DNA of 64,000 nucleotides from Candidatus Gastranaerophilales bacterium (GCA_900769645.1 CAAGHI010000063.1:83379-147378); one strand, 5' to 3'; numbered from the stretch's first letter, positions 6,285-52,146 are shown. Program-made: numbers and translations. The notes: generated by a model from the sequence alone, not told the origin.

Positions 6285-6773
6285 ATGCCTTTCAGATACA
6301 GATTACAGAAAGTTCTGGATTTCAGAATTCGTAAGAAAGAAGAACAGCTGACAGTTGTTCAAAAAGCTCAACAAGCGGTTTATGAAGCCGAAGAGAATAT
6401 CCGAAAAAACGAACAAGAAATTCAGGCGACAAAACAAAATATGCGTTCGGCAGACCCTATGATGTATGAAGCTTATGACAACTATTTGCGGCATCTTTGG
6501 GAAAAAGCTGAACAACTGGAAGCAATCAGAGTTGAGTTACAAAAAAAACTCGATGAAGAGAAGGTTAAACTTATAAAACTCGAACAGGGTGTCAAAGTTC
6601 TTGAAAAACACAAAGAAAAGAACCGTGAAGCCTTTATAGCGGAAGAAAAAGCCGCAGAACTAAAACAGTATTCCGAACTGGGTGTTACAAGATATTTCAG
6701 GCAAAGCCAAGAAAGAGCCGAGGAAGAGGCGCAAATCTTGAAACAACTGGAACAAATAGATGGAGGTAGTTAA
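6285..6773 (+). CDS. fliJ: Flagellar export protein FliJ-like
   Basis: MPFRYRLQKVLDFR start; a ~160 aa charged coiled coil matching the FliJ pattern; followed by fliK-like and a rod/hook gene. Confidence 0.5.
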   Translation: MPFRYRLQKVLDFRIRKKEEQLTVVQKAQQAVYEAEENIRKNEQEIQATKQNMRSADPMMYEAYDNYLRHLWEKAEQLEAIRVELQKKLDEEKVKLIKLEQGVKVLEKHKEKNREAFIAEEKAAELKQYSELGVTRYFRQSQERAEEEAQILKQLEQIDGGS

Positions 6774-6775
6774 AA

Positions 6776-7645
6776 ATGAATATAAGTACATCTTCAGCAG
6801 CAACTGTCGCAGCAGCCAGTGCATCAGATGTAAGCTCAACTCAATCAAAATCAAAAACGAGCAGCAGTTCTAAAGCTGAAAAATCTTTTGAAGATGAGAT
6901 GAAATCTGCTTCCAAAACTGAAAAAACAGAAGAAACAAAAGATTCAAAAGAAACTGAAAAATCATCAAAAGATGATAAAAAGGTTTCTGAAAAAGAAAAA
7001 ACATCTCAAAAAGATTCAAATAAAGAAGCCAATAAACTTGCGGAAGAATTGAAAACTCCTGATGATATTGTTCCGGACGATGTTTATTCAGGCGGAATTA
7101 ATTTTACGGATTTTAAATATCATAATGAAAGTCAGTCTTTGTTGACTCAAAATATTCAAGATTTGTTGAATACAAAAAATTTGATGTCTACCGTAAATTC
7201 AGCTCAAACTGTTGATTATGATGCTATAAATATGTCGGATTCTGATGCAACATTCTTTGCGAATTTAGTCCAAAATACTGATATGTCTATGCAAAGTATT
7301 GCATCTCAAATTCAAACGCAAATGGCAGATGGTAACCAAAATATTCAACAAAATGTGAAAGTTTCGTCTGTTTTGATGGAAAAACTTTCTGAATCAATGA
7401 AAACAAATCAGCCGTTCAGAATAGATTTTGACAAAGATGTTTCTGTCATTATAAAAGTAAATAAAGACGGAAGTCTTGCTGCAAACTTTATCCCTGGGGA
7501 TAAGGCTGTAGAGCAGTATTTGCGTAATAATATTTCGTTTTTGAGACAGCGTTTTGATGAACAAAATTTGTCTTATAGCCAATTGAGTTATAGCAATTCT
7601 CGTCAACAGCAACAGCAAAGACGCCAAGGTAAGGAGAAACAGTAA
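6776..7645 (+). CDS. fliK: Flagellar hook-length control protein FliK-like
   Basis: S/K/E-rich N-terminus; C-terminal Flg_hook-like pattern IDFDKDVSVIIKVNKDGSLAANFIPGDKAVEQYLRNNISFLRQRF; synteny. Confidence 0.45.
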   Translation: MNISTSSAATVAAASASDVSSTQSKSKTSSSSKAEKSFEDEMKSASKTEKTEETKDSKETEKSSKDDKKVSEKEKTSQKDSNKEANKLAEELKTPDDIVPDDVYSGGINFTDFKYHNESQSLLTQNIQDLLNTKNLMSTVNSAQTVDYDAINMSDSDATFFANLVQNTDMSMQSIASQIQTQMADGNQNIQQNVKVSSVLMEKLSESMKTNQPFRIDFDKDVSVIIKVNKDGSLAANFIPGDKAVEQYLRNNISFLRQRFDEQNLSYSQLSYSNSRQQQQQRRQGKEKQ

Positions 7646-9142: not shown

Positions 9143-9250
9143 ATGAGAAGAGATTGTTTTATGCAAGAATTGCTAAAAATGAAAAGCCACCTAATTTGTG
9201 GGGGTAAAGTGCTCGTCGGGGGGGGGGCAATCGTCACGAGGAACATGTAA
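9143..9250 (+). other. Leader sORF (MRRDCFMQELLKMKSHLICGGKVLVGGGAIVTRNM) reading through the G10 tract, out of frame with the pilin domain
   Basis: RBS AAAAGGAG 8 nt before ATG 9143; TAA at 9248-9250. Confidence 0.4.
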
Positions 9251-19779: not shown

Positions 19780-19833
19780 ATGAAAAAATGTAATGAAATG
19801 TTTCGGGGGGGGGGCTCGGAGATACTAGATTAG
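19780..19833 (+). other. Leader sORF (MKKCNEMFRGGGSEILD) reading through the G10 tract, out of frame with the pilin domain
   Basis: Purine-rich RBS GAAAGAGAG before ATG 19780; TAG at 19831-19833. Confidence 0.4.
19805..19814 (+). repeat. Homopolymeric G10 tract, candidate phase-variation site
   Basis: Third G10 in the window, again 43 nt upstream of an A|FTLAEV motif. Confidence 0.8.
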
Positions 19834-41035: not shown

Positions 41036-43000
41036 ATGTCGATAAAAGCAATAAATACAGCAATTAGTGCTCCTCAGCACAATAAACTTAATGAGAAAAA
41101 ACAACAACATCAGCAATCGTTCACAGGTAGTTTTAACCCAATAGTTACATTGATGGACGGAATTGAAAAGGGTGGCTTTGCTGCGTCTTTTATTGCTCAA
41201 GATGGTATTGGTATGGTTGCGCCAAGAATTGGCGAAGGTTTAAACCGTAACAGAAAAGTTGACGAAAACGGCAAAAAGACTGGCCCTTTGAACTGGGAAT
41301 TTGCTCGTAGAGAAGGTATTCGTGAAGTTCTTAGTGGACCTAGTGCGTTTTTAATTCCACTTGGAATTTTGACTGTTTTGAAGAAAACATCAGGGACTGC
41401 GAATAATGTTCATGTAGATCATATCAACGTTTTAGGACAAAACTTTGCAGAATATGCAAGTGCTCACCCTGAACAAATAGCAGATGCAACAGCATTCAAA
41501 AAAGGTTATTACGCTCAAATTTTTGAAAATGCCCTTCATCATTCAACTGATAAAGGTTTGAAAGAAGATGCTTTGAAACAAACTGCACAGTCATTTGCAG
41601 ATAGATTAGTTGAAGCTGAAACTAAACGTGCAAACAAAGATAAAAAAGCTGCGAATAAGCTTATTGGCGGAATTGTAGAAGATTATATGAAGCTTCGCAA
41701 ACAATATGCTTCTCCTTCTGCAAACGAATTTGGCGCTGTAATCGATATCCCAGGGAAAGATAAAAAACTTGGTACAAATATTAAGACACTTATCCAAAGT
41801 TTGACTGATTATTCCGGAGATGCGTTGCATAAGGTTAATAAAAAGCTAGCAAAAGAGGCTGGCGCTGATGTTAAGACTCTTGTTGAAAGCTTCAATCTTC
41901 ACAGAGCCGGAACTCGTGTTCTTGCAAACTTGGGTATGTGGTCAGCTGTTGTAGGTTTCTATACTCTAATTCCAAAACTTTACAATATGGGCTTGAAACA
42001 GGATCCGGGGCTTAAAGGTCTTGTTGAAGAGGAAGAAGTTGAATCAGTTGCAAAACAAATTGAAAACAACGAAAATGGAAAAGACAAAAAAGATGTTTCG
42101 TTCGGCGGTGCCGGTGGAACTATTTCAAAAATTGGTGATACTGCAATAAAAGAAGGCGGTATTGGCAAATTGTTGAAAAATTTTGAGTTCACTGGTGCAT
42201 CTATGTCCGTTCCGGCAATGTTGACATTGTTGTTTGGCTTCTGCTTCCCTCCTAGATATATCAATGCTAAGAGTGATGAAGAAAGAAAAGAAATCGGTGT
42301 TCGTGACCTTACAAGTTTCACTGCAATCTTGTTTGGTGCAAAAGCTTTATCAAGAGGTTTTTCAGATGCATTTGCAAGAATGTCTGGTTTAGCATTGAAT
42401 ATTAAACCGGAAGATCATAACAAAGGTTTCTTGCACAAGGTTAAAAACTACGTGACAGCAGGTGCCGGAATTGATGTATTGTCAAGCGATCAAATTGTTT
42501 CAAAATATAGTAATATTCAAGATTATAAAGACGGAATCAATGGCTTCTTCACATTCTTGGAAGAAAACGGAGGAAATCCGAAAAAAGTTTTGAGTATGGA
42601 TAAAGATGTAAAAGCACAAGCTGAAGAAATTATGAAGAAATTCAGCTCTAAATCTTTGAAAGAGGCAACTTTAGATGAGCTTCATGAAGCATTCAGAAAA
42701 GCCAAAGGTTCTGAGATGTTAGAAAAGATTTATACAGCTTTTGCAACTAAAGATAACAAATTTATTAACAGAGCAAAAACTTTGAATAGTGCATTTGGTT
42801 TTGCATCTACATTGGTACTTGTTCCTGCGTTTATGATGTGGCTTGCTCGTTACTGTGAAAATATGACGAAAAAAGCTATTGCGCAAAAGAAAAATGCAGC
42901 TCAACCAAAAGTAGATGTCGCTCAAAACCAACAGCCGCAACAAGTTAAACCAGTTATTACTTCAAATACACCAACAATGGCAGGTTTTTTGAATAAATAA
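41036..43000 (+). CDS. Hypothetical membrane-associated protein, 654 aa
   Basis: ~4 hydrophobic helices; no recognisable catalytic motif. Confidence 0.45.
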   Translation: MSIKAINTAISAPQHNKLNEKKQQHQQSFTGSFNPIVTLMDGIEKGGFAASFIAQDGIGMVAPRIGEGLNRNRKVDENGKKTGPLNWEFARREGIREVLSGPSAFLIPLGILTVLKKTSGTANNVHVDHINVLGQNFAEYASAHPEQIADATAFKKGYYAQIFENALHHSTDKGLKEDALKQTAQSFADRLVEAETKRANKDKKAANKLIGGIVEDYMKLRKQYASPSANEFGAVIDIPGKDKKLGTNIKTLIQSLTDYSGDALHKVNKKLAKEAGADVKTLVESFNLHRAGTRVLANLGMWSAVVGFYTLIPKLYNMGLKQDPGLKGLVEEEEVESVAKQIENNENGKDKKDVSFGGAGGTISKIGDTAIKEGGIGKLLKNFEFTGASMSVPAMLTLLFGFCFPPRYINAKSDEERKEIGVRDLTSFTAILFGAKALSRGFSDAFARMSGLALNIKPEDHNKGFLHKVKNYVTAGAGIDVLSSDQIVSKYSNIQDYKDGINGFFTFLEENGGNPKKVLSMDKDVKAQAEEIMKKFSSKSLKEATLDELHEAFRKAKGSEMLEKIYTAFATKDNKFINRAKTLNSAFGFASTLVLVPAFMMWLARYCENMTKKAIAQKKNAAQPKVDVAQNQQPQQVKPVITSNTPTMAGFLNK

Positions 43001-43940: not shown

Positions 43941-43947
43941 AGGGGGG
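43941..43947 (+). repeat. G7 homopolymer immediately upstream of the first recombinase's promoter
   Basis: GGGGGGG ~24 nt upstream of the extended -10 TGTATAAT (43973-43980). Confidence 0.6.
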
Positions 43948-44016
43948 GAAAATTTAGAGCAGCCGAATTTTTGTATAATATAAAAAAATTGTTAAAATTT
44001 ATTAAAGAGGGAAGAA

Positions 44017-44556
44017 ATGGGAACTGTAGAACCAATAAGAAATTTAGAAGATTTAAAAAAAGTCGAAAAAATATTATCTAAAAATCCGCGCGATTTATTA
44101 CTTTTTACAATTGGGACTAATTGTGGATTAAGAGTATCTGATATTTTAGCTCTTAATGTTGAAGATGTTAGGAATAAAAATTTTATTCAACTTATAGAAA
44201 AGAAAACAGGGAAATTTAAAAAATTTCCAATTAATTCAAAATTAAAGCCAATGTTTGAAGAATTTATAAAAAATCGAAAAGATGAAGAACCATTGTTTAC
44301 CACAAAGTTTCAAAATCGCCTAGGACGTGTAACTGCCTATTATACAATCAGAGAAGCTTGTAAAATTGCGAATTTAGATGAAAAATTTGGTACACATACA
44401 ATGAGAAAAACGTTTGGGTATCATCACTATAAAAAGTTCAAAGATGTAGCTCTTCTTCAAAAAATATTTAATCATTCAAGCCCAATGGTAACCCTACGAT
44501 ATATCGGGATTGAACAAGAACAAATAAACGAAAGCTATACTAATTTTATCCTCTAA
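44017..44556 (+). CDS. Small tyrosine site-specific recombinase, catalytic domain only (FimB/FimE-like size)
   Basis: GLRVSD (Arg I), HTMRKTF (HxxR), YHHY, LRYIG (Tyr nucleophile); 179 aa. Confidence 0.7.
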   Translation: MGTVEPIRNLEDLKKVEKILSKNPRDLLLFTIGTNCGLRVSDILALNVEDVRNKNFIQLIEKKTGKFKKFPINSKLKPMFEEFIKNRKDEEPLFTTKFQNRLGRVTAYYTIREACKIANLDEKFGTHTMRKTFGYHHYKKFKDVALLQKIFNHSSPMVTLRYIGIEQEQINESYTNFIL

Positions 44557-44570
44557 TTCCAAATTTTTTT

Positions 44571-44780
44571 ATTACATTATTACAAATTTGTAGAGAAACC
44601 ATATTTATAACTATAACCCAATTATAGTACAAATATTTTATTTTTAAAACTATATTAAAATTTGTAAATACATACATTTTCTTTGATGGCAAGCGTTGCC
44701 GCTACTCTCTTCTATACAAATTTGTAAAATTGTATAGAAAAAGTTCAGTTAGTGGATAAATCGGAGAGTAGAAATAATCA
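44571..44780. promoter_or_regulatory. Palindrome-rich spacer between the tandem recombinase genes: AAATTTGTA motif three times, nested inverted repeats CTACTCTC…GAGAGTAG and TCTATACAA…TTGTATAGA
   Basis: Palindrome TACAAATTTGTA at 44581-44592; direct copies at 44659 and 44718; 8 and 9 bp inverted repeats at 44702-44770. Confidence 0.4.
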
Positions 44781-45311
44781 GTGAACGTAATTTCGCCTAT
44801 AAAAAGTATAGAAGAAATCAATTTGATAAAGGATTTGTATAAGAAAAAGCAGCAAACCCCTGAACTTGCGATGTTTACGTTGGCTATAAATACCGGTATA
44901 GATTTGTCTGAACTTTTAAATTTAAAAGTTGAAGATGTAAAAAATAAATTTTATTTGCAAATTGAACCGGAAAAATCAATTCCTTTAGACGAGGACGTAA
45001 GAAAATTAATAGCCAATCTTTCAACAGGTAAGAAAAATTCTGATTTATTGTTTAGTAATAAAAAAGGTAAAAAGGTTGATCGAACAACCGCTTTTTATTC
45101 TTTTAAAAACATTTGTTCCGAATTAGGGTTGAGTGAAAAATATTCTGTTGCATCTTGGCGCAAAACATTTGCGTATCATTACTACAAAAAATATAAGGAT
45201 TTATCGTTTCTGATGTGGTTGTTTAATCAACGTTCAACAGAGCAAGCTTTGAATTTTATTGAAGAAAAAGAAGATATGAATTTGAGATTTAAAGAAGGGG
45301 TGGCACTATAA
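44781..45311 (+). CDS. Second small tyrosine-recombinase-like protein, a degenerate paralog
   Basis: ASWRKTFAYHYY aligns with HTMRKTFGYHHY but the box II His is replaced; GTG start 14 nt after GGAG. Confidence 0.5.
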   Translation: MNVISPIKSIEEINLIKDLYKKKQQTPELAMFTLAINTGIDLSELLNLKVEDVKNKFYLQIEPEKSIPLDEDVRKLIANLSTGKKNSDLLFSNKKGKKVDRTTAFYSFKNICSELGLSEKYSVASWRKTFAYHYYKKYKDLSFLMWLFNQRSTEQALNFIEEKEDMNLRFKEGVAL

Positions 45312-47597
45312 TTGGGTACATATTTTAGAAATTCTTATAATAATATTCCAAGGATAAAGTTTTCAATAATAGTTCCTATATATAATGTTGAAAAGTATTT
45401 GCCTCAATGTCTTGATAGCATTCTCTCTCAAACGTTAAAAGATTTTGAAGTTATTTGTGTAGATGACGGCTCTACGGATAATTCTTTATTAATTTTGCAA
45501 AGTTTTGCAGAAAAAGACTTTCGTGTAAATATTATTTCGCAAAGAAATCAAGGGGTTGGGATTGCGAGAAATAATGCCTTAAAAGAAGTTAAGGGGAAAT
45601 ATTTGCTATTTGTAGATCCTGATGATTGGATAGATACAAATGCTTTAGAATTATTGTGGAATAAAGTAGAAGCTACGGAAGCGTCTGTGCTTCAATTTGA
45701 TTATGCAATATTTAAAGATGGTTCGTTAAAACAAAAAAATATATATTCTTATAAGATTGCCAAAAAATTTGGATATGATTTAAAAGAAAAAGGGTATTTT
45801 AACTGGGAAGTATTTAAGAAACGGCTGTTTCGCCAACTAGGGCTTGCAGTTTGGAATCGAGTTTATTTAACAGATTTTGTAAAAGAAAATAATATTAAGT
45901 TTGCCTCTAGTAGAATTGGCGAAGACCATATATTTACAATAAAAGCTCTAATTTTAGCTCCTAAAATTTTTTATTTGAATAAATGCCTATATCATTACAG
46001 AAAACGAAAAGCTTCTGCGACCAATATGGCTTCAGATGCAAATTTTTCTGCATTTGAAAATGTACAATTAGTTGAAAATTTTTTAAAGGAAAAAGAATTA
46101 TTTGAATGTTTAAAAGAAGAGTTTAAGGAATATAAGATAGAAAATCTTGCACACCATTATTGTTGCGTTCCACAAGATAAAATTCAAATTTATATTGATT
46201 TATGCAAAAAAATTTTGTCGCAAGATGAGTTTGCACAGTTCCAAAAGCTGGCATGTAATGTTGAATTATCGACAAAAGAAAAAATCTTTTCATTAAAAAA
46301 CAGTAAATTAAACGGCATTAAATATAAAGTTCTTACGATTTTAGGCTATTCAATAAAATTGGGTAATAATCCGAGTAAATGCGATTATAGTTCGAATAAA
46401 AATATTAAGAACAGAAGAAAAAATATTTCATTTATTGGTTTGCCGATTTATAGTATTGAAGATTTTGGAAAAGTTCGAATTCAAAAGTTCTTTGGTGGAA
46501 TTTTCCTTTCAGAAAAGTATCGTTCCGACTCAAAAGAATGTAAGATTTTTAAATTGTTGTATATTCCTTTTCTCAAAAGAGTAGTTGAAAATGATGTTTG
46601 CAAGTACTACAGTATGGGAATTTTACTTTGTCAAAAACACTTGGCGCAGAGATTTTTTGAAAAATATTTAAAGAATGTTAAATCCAATTATGATGCAGTG
46701 TACATTTTACATGCAAATAGTGGAGAAATCTTTTTATTTTTCGCATATTTATTAAAATTACATTTAAAAAAGAATAAAATCAAAGATCCTTTATTTGTCA
46801 TTACAAAAAAATATCATATTGATATTTTGAAGATGTATTACCCAGAAGCAAACTACTTATTTATAGCGAATTTGAAATTAAAGACACAGAGTAATGTATG
46901 GAAAACTCCGGATTACAGGTGTTATATCCTGTTTCCCGGTGCTTATTTTAACAAAATTGAAAAGGATATAAAAAATTATGAAATAGGAAAAGTTCACTAT
47001 TTTAATAGAATGCTTGAAGATCTAAATATTTCAAAAGAAGAGTTGCAAGAAATTCAAACGGTGCATTTGAAAAATCCGGTTGAAAAAATCCAAACTATTA
47101 CTAATAAGACAAAGTTAAATGTTGATAAGTTTGTCATTGTCGCTCCTGAAGCTATAACTTGTGAAGGATTGTCAAAAGCATTTTGGGGGAAATTGGTTGG
47201 AAGATTAAAAGATAAAAATTTCGATATTTTTCTAAACATAACAAATCCTAAGAACATAATTGAAAACACAAAATATTGTGAGTTAAGTTTTGAAGAACTG
47301 TATATTTTAGGAGAAAAAGCTCAGGGTATTATTTCGCTAAGGAGTGGGCTTTCTGAATTTTTATTGCCGACAAAGGTTCCTAATATTGCAATTTATTCAA
47401 AATTTAAAAACAGAGGGGAAGAAAATACATTTTCTGTAGAAAAAGGTATTGAAAGCTTTTCAATGCGCAAACTTCCATTTGTAAATAAAGAAAAAATCTA
47501 CGAGATTAATGCAGAGCTTTATAAAAAGGAAGATGAGCTTGTGGACAAGGTGATGGATATATTGGAAAAAGCGATAGTATTTAAGGAGGAAAAATAA
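45312..47597 (+). CDS. Family 2 glycosyltransferase with a ~500 aa C-terminal extension
   Basis: FSIIVPIYNVEKYL…VICVDDGSTDNS GT2 signature; TTG start abutting the upstream stop. Confidence 0.65.
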   Translation: MGTYFRNSYNNIPRIKFSIIVPIYNVEKYLPQCLDSILSQTLKDFEVICVDDGSTDNSLLILQSFAEKDFRVNIISQRNQGVGIARNNALKEVKGKYLLFVDPDDWIDTNALELLWNKVEATEASVLQFDYAIFKDGSLKQKNIYSYKIAKKFGYDLKEKGYFNWEVFKKRLFRQLGLAVWNRVYLTDFVKENNIKFASSRIGEDHIFTIKALILAPKIFYLNKCLYHYRKRKASATNMASDANFSAFENVQLVENFLKEKELFECLKEEFKEYKIENLAHHYCCVPQDKIQIYIDLCKKILSQDEFAQFQKLACNVELSTKEKIFSLKNSKLNGIKYKVLTILGYSIKLGNNPSKCDYSSNKNIKNRRKNISFIGLPIYSIEDFGKVRIQKFFGGIFLSEKYRSDSKECKIFKLLYIPFLKRVVENDVCKYYSMGILLCQKHLAQRFFEKYLKNVKSNYDAVYILHANSGEIFLFFAYLLKLHLKKNKIKDPLFVITKKYHIDILKMYYPEANYLFIANLKLKTQSNVWKTPDYRCYILFPGAYFNKIEKDIKNYEIGKVHYFNRMLEDLNISKEELQEIQTVHLKNPVEKIQTITNKTKLNVDKFVIVAPEAITCEGLSKAFWGKLVGRLKDKNFDIFLNITNPKNIIENTKYCELSFEELYILGEKAQGIISLRSGLSEFLLPTKVPNIAIYSKFKNRGEENTFSVEKGIESFSMRKLPFVNKEKIYEINAELYKKEDELVDKVMDILEKAIVFKEEK

Positions 47598-47600
47598 AAA

Positions 47601-49100
47601 ATGAAAATTATCATTCAAGCTGGTGGTAAAGGAACAAGGTTAGAACACTTAACATATAATAGACCAAAATGTTTGGTGCCTGTACATAACAGACCGATGA
47701 TATTTCATCTTTTTAACAAGTATAAAGATGCTGAGTTTGTTGTAATTGGGGATTATAAATTTGATGTTTTAGAAAAATATCTTGCGACATTTGCAAAAGA
47801 TGTAAACTATAAAATCGTTCGAGCAACCGGAACCGGAAATATATGCGGAATAAAACAAGCACTTGAATTCATTTCAGATAACGAAAAATTTATGTTAATT
47901 TGGTCTGATTTGATTTTATCAGAAGAATTTAAGCCTGAAGAATTACCAACTGGCAATTATGTTGGAATTTTAGAAGGTCAAACTTGTTCTTGGAGCTTTA
48001 TTGACGGGAAATTGGATAAAGTCGCTTCTGACAAATTTGGTGTAGCAGGTTGTTTTGTATTTGAAAACAAATCTGCATTCAAAGATATACCATTATCAGG
48101 TTCTTTTACAACTTGGCTTAAAGAAAGTGGAATTCCTTTAAAGGCAATGAAAATGCCTGCTTGTCCGGAAGTCGGAACTTTGGAAGCAATTGATAACTTG
48201 AAGGATACTCAAAATCGTTGTCGCCCTTATAACAAAATGGAATTTACTGATGGCAAGGTTATAAAAACTGGTTTGACAGAAGAAGGTAAAAAACTGATTG
48301 ATAGAGAGGTCGTTTGGTATAAAAAAATGGTGGAATACGGATTTACATCAATTCCAAAAATCTATTCTTATGACCCTCTTACAATGGAAAAGATTGACGG
48401 TACAAATATTTTTCAGGCAAATTTAACTGATGAACAAAAAGCTAAAATTACTGATAATTTGATAGATTCTGTAAATAAAATGCACAGTTTTGAAACAAAA
48501 CTTTCTGATAAAGAGGACTTGATTAAAGAATACTATACCAAAACAATTGACAGATTGAATAGTATTAAATCTGCAATTCCGTTTGCTGATAGTGAGTATA
48601 TTACAATTAATGGAAAAACTTGCAAAAATCCGATTGTGTTTCAAAAACAATTTAAAGATGCTGTTGAAGAAAAATTACTTGATACAGTATTTTGTCCAAT
48701 CCATGGTGATTGTACTTTGACTAATACAATGGTTGATAAAAATAATAATATTTATTTTATTGATGCAAGAGGATATTTTGGTAAACAAGTTGTTTTAGGC
48801 GATATTCGTTACGATTGGGCAAAATTATATTACTCAATGTGTGGCAATTTCGACAGATTTAATGTTAAAGACTTTAGATTAAAAATTTCAGACAATGATG
48901 TCCTCTTTGAAATCAAATCTAATGGCTGGGAAGATTTAACCGAAAAAGTTTTGGCAAATATGAAAAATTGCAAAGTTAGAGATATTCAATTTATACACGC
49001 TATTATTTGGCTTTCTCTAGCAAGCCACTGTTGGGAAGATTACGACTCAATGTGCTTGGCATTTTATAACGGTATGTATTTAGTAAGTGATTTTATTTAA
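47601..49100 (+). CDS. Bifunctional sugar-phosphate nucleotidyltransferase (N-terminal) / APH-ChoK-family kinase (C-terminal)
   Basis: MKIIIQAGGKGTRL…NRPKCLVPV; HGDCTLTNTMVD…IYFIDARGYFG. Confidence 0.6.
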   Translation: MKIIIQAGGKGTRLEHLTYNRPKCLVPVHNRPMIFHLFNKYKDAEFVVIGDYKFDVLEKYLATFAKDVNYKIVRATGTGNICGIKQALEFISDNEKFMLIWSDLILSEEFKPEELPTGNYVGILEGQTCSWSFIDGKLDKVASDKFGVAGCFVFENKSAFKDIPLSGSFTTWLKESGIPLKAMKMPACPEVGTLEAIDNLKDTQNRCRPYNKMEFTDGKVIKTGLTEEGKKLIDREVVWYKKMVEYGFTSIPKIYSYDPLTMEKIDGTNIFQANLTDEQKAKITDNLIDSVNKMHSFETKLSDKEDLIKEYYTKTIDRLNSIKSAIPFADSEYITINGKTCKNPIVFQKQFKDAVEEKLLDTVFCPIHGDCTLTNTMVDKNNNIYFIDARGYFGKQVVLGDIRYDWAKLYYSMCGNFDRFNVKDFRLKISDNDVLFEIKSNGWEDLTEKVLANMKNCKVRDIQFIHAIIWLSLASHCWEDYDSMCLAFYNGMYLVSDFI

Positions 49101-49109
49101 GAGGTGCTT

Positions 49110-49496
49110 ATGCTTAAAGAAAAACAACAATTGAGAATATCTCCGCTTGGACATAGTTGGATTTTAGATTTTGACGGTACGCTTGTTGAACATAATGGCT
49201 ACAAGACAGGTGATGACAAGTTTTTACCAGGGGTAAAAGAGTTTTTGCAATCTATTCCTAAAGACGATTTTGTTTTGATTATGACCGCTAGAGAAAAAGA
49301 TGCTAAAGAAAAAACGGTCAAATTTTTGAATGAAAACGGGATTAGATTTAATGAAATTCTTTTTGAAATGCCAATGGGTGAAAGAATTTTGATAAATGAT
49401 GACAAACCGTCTGGGTTGAGATGTGCTTATGCAATAACTCCAACTAGAAATCAAGGGTTAGAAAATTTAGATGTAATTGTAGATGAAAACTTATAA
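49110..49496 (+). CDS. HAD-superfamily phosphatase
   Basis: ILDFDGTL motif I; ~129 aa; RBS AAGAGGTG. Confidence 0.5.
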   Translation: MLKEKQQLRISPLGHSWILDFDGTLVEHNGYKTGDDKFLPGVKEFLQSIPKDDFVLIMTAREKDAKEKTVKFLNENGIRFNEILFEMPMGERILINDDKPSGLRCAYAITPTRNQGLENLDVIVDENL

Positions 49497-49505
49497 GGAG
49501 CAATA

Positions 49506-50393
49506 ATGTTAATTATTAAAACAATGATTCATGAAACAATTTGGGGTGGAGATAGATTAACTTCATATTCAAATACTAATAGCAAAAAGATTGGACACTT
49601 ATATTCACTTATTTCAAATGGGGAACTGGAAAGTGAAATCTTGAATGGCGAATATAAAGGACAACTGTTCAGAAAATATTTTGACGATAACAAAGCAAAA
49701 TTTGGATTAGCAAAATATAAAGAATTACCATTTTTGTTGGCTTTGGTTGATGCTACAGATGATTTGAGTTTGCAAGTACACCCTGATGATGAAGTAGCGA
49801 AAGAACTTGAAAATGCAGATTTTGGTAAAAATGAATCTTGGTATTTTTTAGAAGTTCCAAAAAGTGGGAAAATTTATGATGGTTGCAAAGCCAAAAATTC
49901 TCAAGAATTGCGAGAAAAAGTTGCACAAGGCAAATACGATGATGTTATTGACTATTTGAATGTTGAAGTTGGAAGCTATGTTTATATAGAAGCTGGTACA
50001 ATGCACGCAATGTCAGCAGGAAGCCTTGTTTATGAGATTGAAGAAAATTGTAATGCAACTTATAGAGTTTATGATTTCGATAGAATTGACAAAGATGGCA
50101 AAAAACGCCCTCTTCAAACAGAAGCGGCTTTAAAATCAATTCATGTAGATAAAAAATCTGTTGCTCAAAAATATGATAGAGAAAAGGTTGAAAGATTATA
50201 TGCAACAAATCTTTTCACATATAAAAAAGAGTATACAAATAAATCAAATACAATCGAATGTTTAACAGTTTTGAATGGCAAATCTGAAGTGGAAGGTTTT
50301 ACTGTTCAAAAAGGAACAACCATTGTTTTGGAACCGAATGAAACAGTTAAGTTAAATGAGTCCGACTTTATTGTCGCAAGAGCGTTGGTGTAA
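49506..50393 (+). CDS. Type I phosphomannose-isomerase-family cupin isomerase
   Basis: ETIWGG…SLQVHPDD…GKNESWYF…HAMSAGS. Confidence 0.6.
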   Translation: MLIIKTMIHETIWGGDRLTSYSNTNSKKIGHLYSLISNGELESEILNGEYKGQLFRKYFDDNKAKFGLAKYKELPFLLALVDATDDLSLQVHPDDEVAKELENADFGKNESWYFLEVPKSGKIYDGCKAKNSQELREKVAQGKYDDVIDYLNVEVGSYVYIEAGTMHAMSAGSLVYEIEENCNATYRVYDFDRIDKDGKKRPLQTEAALKSIHVDKKSVAQKYDREKVERLYATNLFTYKKEYTNKSNTIECLTVLNGKSEVEGFTVQKGTTIVLEPNETVKLNESDFIVARALV

Positions 50394-50405
50394 GGAGGTA
50401 GTGAG

Positions 50406-51068
50406 TTGAGCATAGAATTATCAGCTTCAATGATGTGTGCAAATTATGCCTGCTTAAGAGATGAGGTGAAAAATCTTGAAGATGCAGGGATTGATATTTT
50501 TCATATAGATATAATGGACGGAAGTTTTGTTGATAACTTTGGAATGGGTTATCAGGACATGGCTTTTATCAAAAACAATACGAACAAACTTGTTGAGGCA
50601 CATTTGATGGTAAGAAAGCCATACAACTATTTGGATATTTTGTTTAACTTGGGCATTGATATTATTTATATTCACCCAGAAGTTGATCCTGACCCTGCGA
50701 CAACTATTGAAAAAATTCATCAACACGGAGCAATTGCTGGTATTGCGATTAATCCGGGGACTGCAATTTCTACAATAGAAGAATTGCTGAATACAGTGGA
50801 TAGAGTTCTTGTTTTGGGGGTGAACCCAGGACATGCCGGACGAAAATATCAACCCTATGTGGATAGAAAAATAGAACGTTTGTTGGAACTAAAAAGAATT
50901 TTTAATTTCGAAATAGAACTTGATGGAGCGGTGACACCAGAACGAATTGCTCAGTGGCAACCTCGTGGAGTGAAAAGTTTTGTCCTTGGTACAGCTACAT
51001 TGTTTAAAAAAGATAATACTTATAGAGATATAATTGATAAACTAAACAAAGTGTTGGTAACAAAATAA
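50406..51068 (+). CDS. Ribulose-phosphate 3-epimerase-family ketose-phosphate epimerase
   Basis: HIDIMDGSFVDNFGMG, HLMV, GVNPGHAG; TTG start 7 nt after AAGGAGG. Confidence 0.6.
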   Translation: MSIELSASMMCANYACLRDEVKNLEDAGIDIFHIDIMDGSFVDNFGMGYQDMAFIKNNTNKLVEAHLMVRKPYNYLDILFNLGIDIIYIHPEVDPDPATTIEKIHQHGAIAGIAINPGTAISTIEELLNTVDRVLVLGVNPGHAGRKYQPYVDRKIERLLELKRIFNFEIELDGAVTPERIAQWQPRGVKSFVLGTATLFKKDNTYRDIIDKLNKVLVTK

Positions 51069-51078
51069 GGAGTTATGT

Positions 51079-52146
51079 GTGGATAGAATAATTGATAAGT
51101 CTAACTTAAATAATATGGGCTTTATAAATGCAAGGATATTAGTATTGTTTATTAAATTTCTAATTTTCTTAATAAATATAATTGTTGTAGTTAAGCCGGT
51201 TAGGATAAAAATAAGAAAAAAGTTATTTAATTTAATTAATAAAATATTTTTAAAAGAGGTTAAAAAAGAAATAAAAAATATTAGAAGCAAATATTCTGAC
51301 TATTATATCTTTTCGTTGTTCTTTCCATTGGGAGATCTTGGGATCGCTTGCTCTTTAATGAAAATATTTAAAAATAAAAATAATAAAAAAATATTGGTAA
51401 TTGTAAATGATAAAAACAGGGCTAGAGTTGCAAGCTTGTTTCCATCTATAGATAAAATAATGATTGTACATCCTTTTGTATATGATTACATTTATAATAA
51501 TCCTGAATTTAAAATTAAAAAAGGTCGAATTTATGAAATAAATCATTGGAAATTTTATGATGCACCAAAGTATAAATCAAAGAATTTTTTAGAGCTTTAT
51601 GCTCATATGCTAGGATTAAAAGAGTGGGAAAATTTTGAATCTCCTGTTTTTTCTGAAATGTTAGTTGATAATGTCATGAAAATTATTGAAAAAAAACATA
51701 TAGATATAAGAAAAACTGTGTTTATTGCAAAAGATTCAAATTCATTTAATTGTAAATTAATAGATGAAAATTTTTGGATAAATAAAGCTAAATATTATAA
51801 AAATATGGGGTATGAGGTTGTATTTAATTCGAAGAAAAAGTCTTTTCAAGGATATAAAACAATATTTTTACCAATGCATGAACAATTGTATTTTTGTTCT
51901 TTATGTAAAAAGGTTGTTGCAATTCGAAGTGGTTTCAATGATTTGTTAGGATTAATGAAATTGGACAATCTAGAGATATATTACCCAAAAACTATGTTTT
52001 TTGGTTCAATAAAAAAAATAGATCAACTTTGTGAGTTTAAGCGAGCATTTTTTGATGATGAAAGTAAAAATTTTAATGAAAATATGTATAGAATAACATC
52101 TTTAAATATGTTTAACTTAAAACATGTAGAGGAATACATATTATAA
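51079..52146 (+). CDS. Hypothetical protein, very AT-rich, possibly a glycosyltransferase
   Basis: N-terminal TM; Lys/Ile/Asn-rich codon usage unlike the housekeeping genes. Confidence 0.4.
   Translation: MDRIIDKSNLNNMGFINARILVLFIKFLIFLINIIVVVKPVRIKIRKKLFNLINKIFLKEVKKEIKNIRSKYSDYYIFSLFFPLGDLGIACSLMKIFKNKNNKKILVIVNDKNRARVASLFPSIDKIMIVHPFVYDYIYNNPEFKIKKGRIYEINHWKFYDAPKYKSKNFLELYAHMLGLKEWENFESPVFSEMLVDNVMKIIEKKHIDIRKTVFIAKDSNSFNCKLIDENFWINKAKYYKNMGYEVVFNSKKKSFQGYKTIFLPMHEQLYFCSLCKKVVAIRSGFNDLLGLMKLDNLEIYYPKTMFFGSIKKIDQLCEFKRAFFDDESKNFNENMYRITSLNMFNLKHVEEYIL

Follow-up and report, generated by a model that had tools for sequence, protein, structure and literature searches.

A probable promoter inverton with a catalytically dead recombinase paralog ahead of a glycan operon in a gut Gastranaerophilales bacterium

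Among the described systems in which a short promoter-bearing DNA segment is inverted, the fimS element with its recombinases FimB and FimE, together with MrpI, HbiF and other tyrosine invertases of enterobacteria, is nearest in logic to the locus we describe here, which occupies positions 43,941 to 45,311 of a 64,000-nucleotide stretch of DNA (the window) from a Candidatus Gastranaerophilales bacterium (GCA_900769645.1, CAAGHI010000063.1:83379-147378). Two co-oriented genes, which we call rec1 and rec2, encode tyrosine recombinase homologs of 179 and 176 amino acids and are separated by a spacer of 224 bp. We consider it highly probable that the locus is a site-specific DNA inversion switch, a promoter inverton, giving phase-variable modification of a surface glycan.

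As in fim, a small tyrosine recombinase (179 amino acids for Rec1, 198-200 for the fim enzymes), consisting of the catalytic domain only, stands beside the short invertible promoter of a surface-structure operon, and expression of the second recombinase gene would depend on the orientation of the switch. Unlike fim, the recombinase shares only 24-25% identity with FimB and FimE and falls below the cut-offs of their family models, and rec1 lies upstream of the switch and ends 12 bp before the left recombination site. The repeats here are dyads of 18-30 nt and the segment between them is 112 bp, whereas fimS has 9-bp repeats and a segment of 314 bp. Furthermore, the second gene encodes a catalytically dead protein and is itself part of the switched operon, and the cargo is a set of glycan enzymes rather than fimbriae.

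Other described switches share individual features with this locus. The capsule invertons of Bacteroides (Mpi; UpxY/UpxZ) and the invertible regions adjoining genes of Tsr-type tyrosine recombinases also belong to gut bacteria with many invertible promoters before surface-glycan loci, and in the capsule loci too regulators rather than enzymes are the first switched genes. However, in Bacteroides a single global serine recombinase acts on all the capsule promoters, whereas most switches of the family described below have their own adjacent tyrosine recombinase and repeats that differ between loci, and the first, regulator-like gene encodes a dead recombinase instead of a NusG-like protein. In hin-fljBA of Salmonella the switched operon likewise pairs a structural product with a regulator made in one orientation only, but Hin belongs to the serine recombinases, with its gene lying within the invertible segment, and FljA bears no relation to recombinases. 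The RecV switches of Clostridioides difficile (cwpV, flgB, cmrRST) are short invertible regulatory segments driven by a tyrosine recombinase in a gut bacterium; there a single RecV serves many unlinked switches, while here each locus has its own recombinase linked to its own site.

Evidence that the spacer inverts came from contigs found by an identical Rec1 or Rec2 protein or belonging to the same species. In two of these (L001 and L002) the segment at 44598-44709 (112 nt between the dyads, about 142 bp of flipping DNA when the inner arms are included) is 100% identical to that of the window only as its reverse complement, while the 100-nt flanks are 100% identical, and five more same-species contigs from other samples (L085-L089) carry the same reverse-complemented segment. 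In all, seven near-identical metagenome contigs of the species of the window, drawn from at least six samples, have the segment flipped between unchanged flanks. Exact inversion was also found in seven further orthologous groups, giving eight independent groups in all: L004 versus L005; L098 versus L036/L105; L128 versus L127/129/131; L147/152 versus L148-157; and, reached through relatives of Rec2, L173/175 versus L174/176, L180 versus L177-179 and L183 versus L182/184. Throughout the eight groups the segments are 90-100% identical only after reverse complementation, with breakpoints exactly at the repeats. Before the three groups reached through relatives of Rec2 were added, locus pairs with near-identical flanks had the same orientation in 54 cases and opposite orientations in 20. 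An intergenic segment, bounded by repeats and occurring in both orientations, is how surveys of the PhaseFinder type define a promoter inverton, and among assemblies this is what we found in the eight orthologous groups. The original prediction had rightly read the locus as a possibly phase-variable surface-glycan switch with a switch recombinase rather than a phage integrase, a reading supported by these natural inversions and by the conserved cassette described below, but had placed the inversion between repeats at 44702-44770; the true segment is bounded by dyads at 44568-44597 and 44710-44739.

The first of these dyads, the left recombination site (IRL, plus strand), begins 12 bp past the rec1 stop codon and is composed of an outer arm TTTATTACATT, a central region ATTACAAA and an inner arm TTTGTAGAGAA (as reverse complement, TTCTCTACAAA / TTTGTAAT / AATGTAATAAA); it forms the left inversion boundary relative to L001 and L002. 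The right recombination site (IRR, plus strand) is a near-perfect dyad, TTCTATACAAA / TTTGTAAA / ATTGTATAGAA. Each site is a 30-nt dyad whose two 11-bp arms enclose an asymmetric centre of 8 bp, as in lox, FRT and dif sites, and the two sites are mutually inverted. The dyads are built around TACAAATTTGTA, two copies of which lie in the spacer (44581-44592 and 44715-44726). The main inverted repeat, with arms at 44562-44597 and 44710-44745, scored 16, compared with a maximum of 13 among 272 control regions and shuffles, and the 64-kb window held no further copy of the recombination site beyond both sites and the dyad partner.

The arrangement recurs across the order. Relatives of rec1 numbered 568 in species-representative genomes, nearly all of these relatives lying in metagenome-assembled genomes (MAGs) of Gastranaerophilales, with more than one copy in several MAGs, and a metagenome scan added 562 more. 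An inverted-repeat pair scoring at least 14 was found within about 200 nt 3' of rec1 in 105 of the 159 copies with enough downstream sequence, enclosing 92-304 nt (median 142). At this threshold repeats were present in 53 of 78 regions downstream of rec1, and in none of the 272 controls (0/81 upstream regions, 0/113 distal regions and 0/78 shuffles). The repeat sequences vary from locus to locus, even within one MAG, although each is still a dyad, and the two arms are identical to each other at a locus while diverging between loci; these locus-specific repeats suggest that each recombinase has its own site. At nearly every locus a co-oriented open reading frame (ORF) starts within about 100 nt past the right repeat. 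The first two ORFs after the switches mostly encode glycan enzymes (GT2, Stealth, GT9, GLF and LicD, and also glycerophosphotransferases, sugar dehydratases and epimerases, and an initiating sugar transferase), and at many loci a glycosyltransferase gene comes straight after the switch, without rec2.

Within the invertible segment of the window we identified a predicted promoter, TTTAAA-16-TATAAT with a TTTGTAC motif, at 44621-44648 on the minus strand, where it faces the 3' end of rec1; in L001 the same promoter site is on the plus strand and faces rec2 and the glycosyltransferase operon. The operon is therefore presumed to be OFF in the window orientation and predicted to be ON in the seven flipped contigs of the species. 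When segments of the family were aligned with their direction adjusted, a TTTGTGnTATAAT block was conserved across loci, and the distance from the end of this block to the exit-side arm had a median of 25 nt (interquartile range 24-30; 64 switches), independent of segment length. The conserved motif is probably an active promoter. Between 35 and 45 nt upstream of the -10 lies a conserved A/T-rich element that looks like an UP element and that in the window contains a copy of AAATTTGTA (44658-44666, plus strand). Plain sigma-70 scoring proved too noisy for orientation calls in such AT-rich DNA, and the conserved family motif was used instead; with it, 47 of 105 switches were called OFF and 17 ON, so that both orientations are represented across species, the remaining 41 being ambiguous.

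The further repeats of the spacer that the original prediction had listed are all present. AAATTTGTA occurs three times on the plus strand, at 44584, 44658 and 44718, and has 11 matches in the window on both strands, five of them inside these 150 bp; a TCTATACAA...TTGTATAGA dyad is found as well; and CTACTCTC (44702-44709) is paired with GAGAGTAG (44764-44771), the second arm of this pair (44702-44771, plus strand) overlapping the Shine-Dalgarno sequence of rec2. The computed probability that this Shine-Dalgarno sequence is unpaired was 0.34 in OFF read-through RNA, 0.58 in ON read-through RNA and 0.84 in the native ON transcript, and at the window locus alone CTACTCTC/GAGAGTAG may act as an anti-Shine-Dalgarno element in the OFF read-through RNA. 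With each switch flipped in silico the effect was seen at 4 of 14 loci (Wilcoxon p=0.31), and a general role of this kind was not adopted. A GGCAAGCGTTGCC hairpin of the segment was considered as a terminator and discarded, as a T-run is missing on both strands and the scan did not call it, and the spacer region gave no Rfam match at E<=1.

The rec1 gene (44017-44556, plus strand, ATG start) encodes a putative invertase of 179 amino acids that consists of the catalytic domain only. It matches PF00589 with E=1e-22 (81.2 bits against a cut-off of 27.1), as does its 31% identical paralog Rec2 (E=6.6e-15, 55.7 bits), so that the two recombinase ORFs described at the outset are confirmed. Rec1 has the full set of an active enzyme (R..HxxR..H/W..Y, with the Tyr nucleophile), namely R39, H127xxR130, H153 and Y162, all of them invariant across 14 homologs, and Rec2 does not, in agreement with what had been predicted for both proteins. 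Homologs of Rec1 number in the thousands; the 120 closest have 146-216 amino acids, mostly 179-180, and the named sources are Candidatus Gastranaerophilaceae and Melainabacteria. Rec1 is probably the enzyme that performs the inversion.

The proposed kinship with FimB, FimE and MrpI fared less well. Among the FimB and FimE models (NCBIfam NF007370 and NF007371), the FimE-type one gave Rec1 29 bits against a cut-off of 222, while FimB and FimE themselves scored 452-458 bits, and its sequence places Rec1 outside the FimB/E family. Of the profile comparison that had been suggested to place the protein, the Phage_integrase match was obtained and the FimB/E cut-off was not reached; the likeness holds for size and logic, and fails in that Rec2 is dead and encoded inside the switched unit. 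The best NCBIfam and PDB matches of Rec1 are instead the catalytic domains of XerA, XerC, XerD and XerH, and this raised the possibility that Rec1 is a Xer-type dimer resolvase or the integrase of a mobile element, with the inverted segment adjacent by coincidence. We find this scarcely credible. All Xer scores are far under their cut-offs (90 bits for XerA against 220; 61 and 60 bits for XerC and XerD against 335 and 330), and in each model the match is limited to the C-terminal half (positions 100-263 for XerA), the core-binding domain being absent. FimB and FimE also have Xer models as their second-best matches, so the Xer resemblance of Rec1 is no argument against an invertase role, and clustering with XerC/D, which had been put forward as grounds for refuting a switch recombinase, does not discriminate. 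Several rec1 copies occur per genome. Moreover, the locus is flanked by GlnA, GidA/TrmFO-like and MlaE genes on one side and by Na/H antiporter and ThyX genes on the other; as had been predicted, phage genes are absent among these neighbours, as are transfer genes (att sites and tRNA genes were not specifically searched for), and with housekeeping genes on both sides the locus is not a prophage.

Upstream of rec1 a putative extended -10 (TG-TATAAT, 43972-43979, plus strand), preceded by TTTT as in the family motif, can be read from the sequence; the consensus promoter scan missed it, there being no -35. A G7 homopolymer (43942-43948, plus strand) does lie 25 nt upstream of its TATAAT (43974-43979), as had been pointed out. 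The tract is G6 in L001 and L002, with compensating differences in A/T runs, and is missing 5' of rec1 at nearly all other loci, and we did not retain it as a phase-variable promoter tract or as part of the switch.

The rec2 gene (44781-45311, plus strand, GTG start, 176 amino acids) is the first gene 3' of the switch. At the catalytic positions Rec2 has D, S (with the following R kept), Q and F, so that Arg-I, His-II, His-III and the Tyr nucleophile are gone, and its beta-hairpin carries a deletion of 5 amino acids. The family comprises 241 clusters, nearly all of 176 amino acids, and keeps conserved motifs of its own (SWRKTFAYHYY...KDLSYLQWLFNQ, and ENMNLRYREGV at the C-terminus). All 22 aligned family members have lost two or more catalytic residues, and 20 of the 22 the Tyr; further locus-encoded copies examined at the catalytic motifs show the same pattern of loss. 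Neither FimB/FimE model matched Rec2, which has a weak match to NCBIfam NF002685 (2e-05, 24.6 bits, cut-off 178), the streptococcal 'XerD-like' protein, which we take to be a tyrosine-recombinase paralog that has lost catalytic residues and is conserved nonetheless. That protein differs from Rec2 in genomic context, and we know of no association of it with an invertible element. Among orthologs of rec2 dN/dS is 0.03-0.11, and at every locus with a detected repeat pair the gene starts 28-69 nt past IRR. This low dN/dS, together with the fixed placement after the right repeat, indicates that Rec2 is a maintained, strongly conserved pseudo-recombinase sited for ON-only expression; from its placement, rec2 would be expressed in the ON orientation only. 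With low confidence, we suggest that Rec2 binds DNA or Rec1 and so provides orientation-dependent feedback or cross-talk with other rec1 switches.

Given these properties, there is very little likelihood that Rec1 and Rec2 are an active invertase pair of the FimB/FimE type with different directional biases. Such a pair would account for two tandem, co-oriented genes for proteins of about 180 amino acids adjoining an invertible promoter, and for a Rec1-FimE alignment that spans the whole catalytic domain (E=3e-13). It is difficult to reconcile, however, with the loss of catalytic residues throughout the Rec2 family, with the 29-bit score of Rec1, and with the placement of rec2 downstream of the switch, fimE being upstream of its own.

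The switched operon (45312-52146, plus strand) consists of six co-oriented genes with short or no gaps, and the polysaccharide and nucleotide-sugar cluster that had been predicted directly downstream is thus present on the same strand. The genes encode a 761-amino-acid GT2 fusion, a 499-amino-acid nucleoside triphosphate transferase/kinase, a HAD phosphatase, a PMI-like isomerase, a ribulose-P-3-epimerase family protein, and a 355-amino-acid protein without an assigned function. The stretch 47601-51068, with its epimerase, isomerase, HAD phosphatase, fusion of an APH-type kinase with a nucleotidyltransferase, and GT2, looks like an entire salvage-style pathway that would convert a ketose phosphate into a nucleoside diphosphate sugar, the end sugar being possibly of the allose or psicose type; none of these genes reached an NCBIfam equivalog cut-off.

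It might be argued that the switch mainly controls rec1 itself, or rec2 as a regulator, and that the glycan genes have a promoter of their own. In the window orientation the promoter is antisense into rec1, regulators of LuxR type rather than enzymes follow some switches of the family, and a 13-nt copy of the -10 region, ACTATAATTGGGT, lies at the junction of rec2 with the glycosyltransferase gene (45305-45317). We nevertheless regard this as unlikely. The TAA stop of rec2 directly abuts the TTG start of the glycosyltransferase gene, suggesting a single transcription unit, and at many loci without rec2 a glycosyltransferase gene follows the switch directly. The conserved DNA at the junction is accounted for by conservation of the Rec2 C-terminus as protein. 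The 13-nt copy is one half of an exact inverted repeat (ACCCAATTATAGT / ACTATAATTGGGT, at 44616-44628 and 45305-45317) with one copy in the -10 region of the promoter that switches and the other where rec2 stops and the glycosyltransferase gene starts, the two copies becoming direct repeats when the switch is ON. The first 30 nt of one contig (L089:1-30) join both copies, the contig being either chimeric or derived from DNA in which rec2 is deleted.

Two variants of the cassette, and one more elaborate locus, were also observed. In a second class, rec1-linked, repeat-flanked segments of about 142-146 nt with other internal sequence stand before an ORF of 95-125 amino acids of GerE/LuxR type, followed by another rec1 gene with its own switch (L035:6001-7150, L052:1107-2195, L053, L061, L063, L067, L068, L071-L073, L096, L099, L114 and L136); these may form a cascade from recombinase to regulator to recombinase. 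At L182:1721-2120, L183:753-1152 and L184:1-463 a switch (sites ACAWTWTTGATAAAATGTATAGAA) is followed by rec2 with no rec1 adjacent, and a HigB-like toxin gene and a 99-amino-acid ORF lie upstream. Finally, a long-read Gastranaerophilales chromosome (OZ007029.1, L031:6582-6933) has a longer spacer between rec1 and rec2 with three different dyad-like sites (6582-6615, 6735-6762 and 6900-6929), suggestive of a switch that is nested or otherwise more complex.

The promoter-inverton reading is supported by the natural inversions at this locus and in seven other groups, and from the conserved architecture of the cassette. In the mechanism we propose, Rec1 would bind the two inverted 30-bp dyads and exchange strands in their central regions, so that the DNA between them flips together with an outward-firing promoter of sigma-70 type. 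In the OFF orientation the promoter would fire back into the 3' end of rec1 and the glycan operon would be silent; in the ON orientation it would drive transcription of rec2, the GT2 glycosyltransferase gene and five sugar-activation genes. Rec2, itself non-catalytic, would then be made in ON cells only and could feed back on its own switch or engage in cross-talk with other rec1 switches. A broader proposal is that such self-contained cassettes, each with a minimal recombinase, a private pair of dyad sites and an exit promoter, extend throughout Gastranaerophilales and that in a subset of them a dead Rec1 paralog, as the first switched gene, binds recombination sites or Rec1 and thereby locks or biases its own switch or ranks other switches; we regard this as tentative and rather doubtful, though the inversion at L182-L184 without an adjacent rec1 fits cross-talk between loci.

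Several observations weigh against this account. A paired single-nucleotide polymorphism (A versus G) separates the repeats of the window from those of the other contigs of the species, so that the two orientations at this locus stem from different strains, and switching within populations is deduced from assemblies of different samples. The promoter is identified by prediction, with no clear orientation call for 41 of 105 switches, and promoter-like matches in this region are no commoner than in its shuffles. Switches of the second class are all in one orientation. L183 is inverted relative to L182 and L184 with no rec1 adjacent, so cis linkage is not obligatory and a recombinase must act in trans there. 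Finally, the ON/OFF ratio is not shifted by the presence of rec2 (4/17 with and 13/30 without it), and the idea that Rec2 is an 'ON lock' was dropped for this reason.

The paired polymorphism, the frequency of promoter-like matches at no more than the level of shuffles, and the fact that both orientations were seen across samples rather than within one would also suit inversions that are rare fixed strain polymorphisms or assembly artefacts, the repeats being incidental palindromes of an AT-rich spacer. This we judge to be quite improbable, as eight independent groups flip exactly at the repeat boundaries, such repeats occur downstream of rec1 and in none of the controls, and the arms remain identical to each other within a locus while diverging between loci. 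The repeats, at 18-30 nt, are far shorter than the k-mer sizes of 119-141 that appear in several contig names, and presumably than the reads, which makes a flip by the assembler unlikely. In addition, L174, L175 and L176, which come from ENA assemblies numbered almost consecutively, are identical in sequence and between them show both orientations. Of 170 contigs, 11 end within 250 nt past rec1, as would be seen if a site of mixed orientation broke assemblies.

Elsewhere in the window, past MlaE on the upstream side, a 654-amino-acid ORF (41036-43000) with a Q/P-rich C-terminus is kept beside the locus in L001 and L002; no credible Pfam family was found for it. The window also contains three G10 tracts (174-183, 9218-9227 and 19805-19814), in DNA of 35% GC in which 0.6 G7 matches are expected by chance. 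Each falls at the beginning of a gene of type-IV-pilin-like character (N_methyl motif, DUF6613), just after the ribosome-binding site and ATG. In the assembly a frameshift interrupts all three genes, which would be full-length, with 245-380 amino acids, at G8 or G11 (the first and third) and at G9 or G12 (the second); the tracts look like slipped-strand contingency loci.

A full-text literature search found no description of invertible promoters in Melainabacteria, or of a dead recombinase paralog in a switched operon, the only related match being a survey of hsdS invertons that mentions the phylum; with journals partly covered, this is absence of evidence and not proof. To our knowledge gut Melainabacteria have no cultured representative, and their handling of host immunity and phages is almost undescribed. 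The locus provides sequence-level evidence for variation of a surface glycan by DNA inversion in these bacteria, in a genome whose pilin-like genes also include three with putative poly-G contingency tracts. The cassette is unusually compact, with an enzyme of 179 amino acids, 30-bp sites and a 112-bp payload, and its many site versions could supply synthetic biology with small recombinase/site pairs, provided that these are free of cross-reaction. The dead paralog in the switched operon offers a testable example of a pseudo-enzyme that would have been taken over for control of the reaction its ancestor catalysed; if this is true, the regulatory use of a dead recombinase would be one not yet described for invertons.

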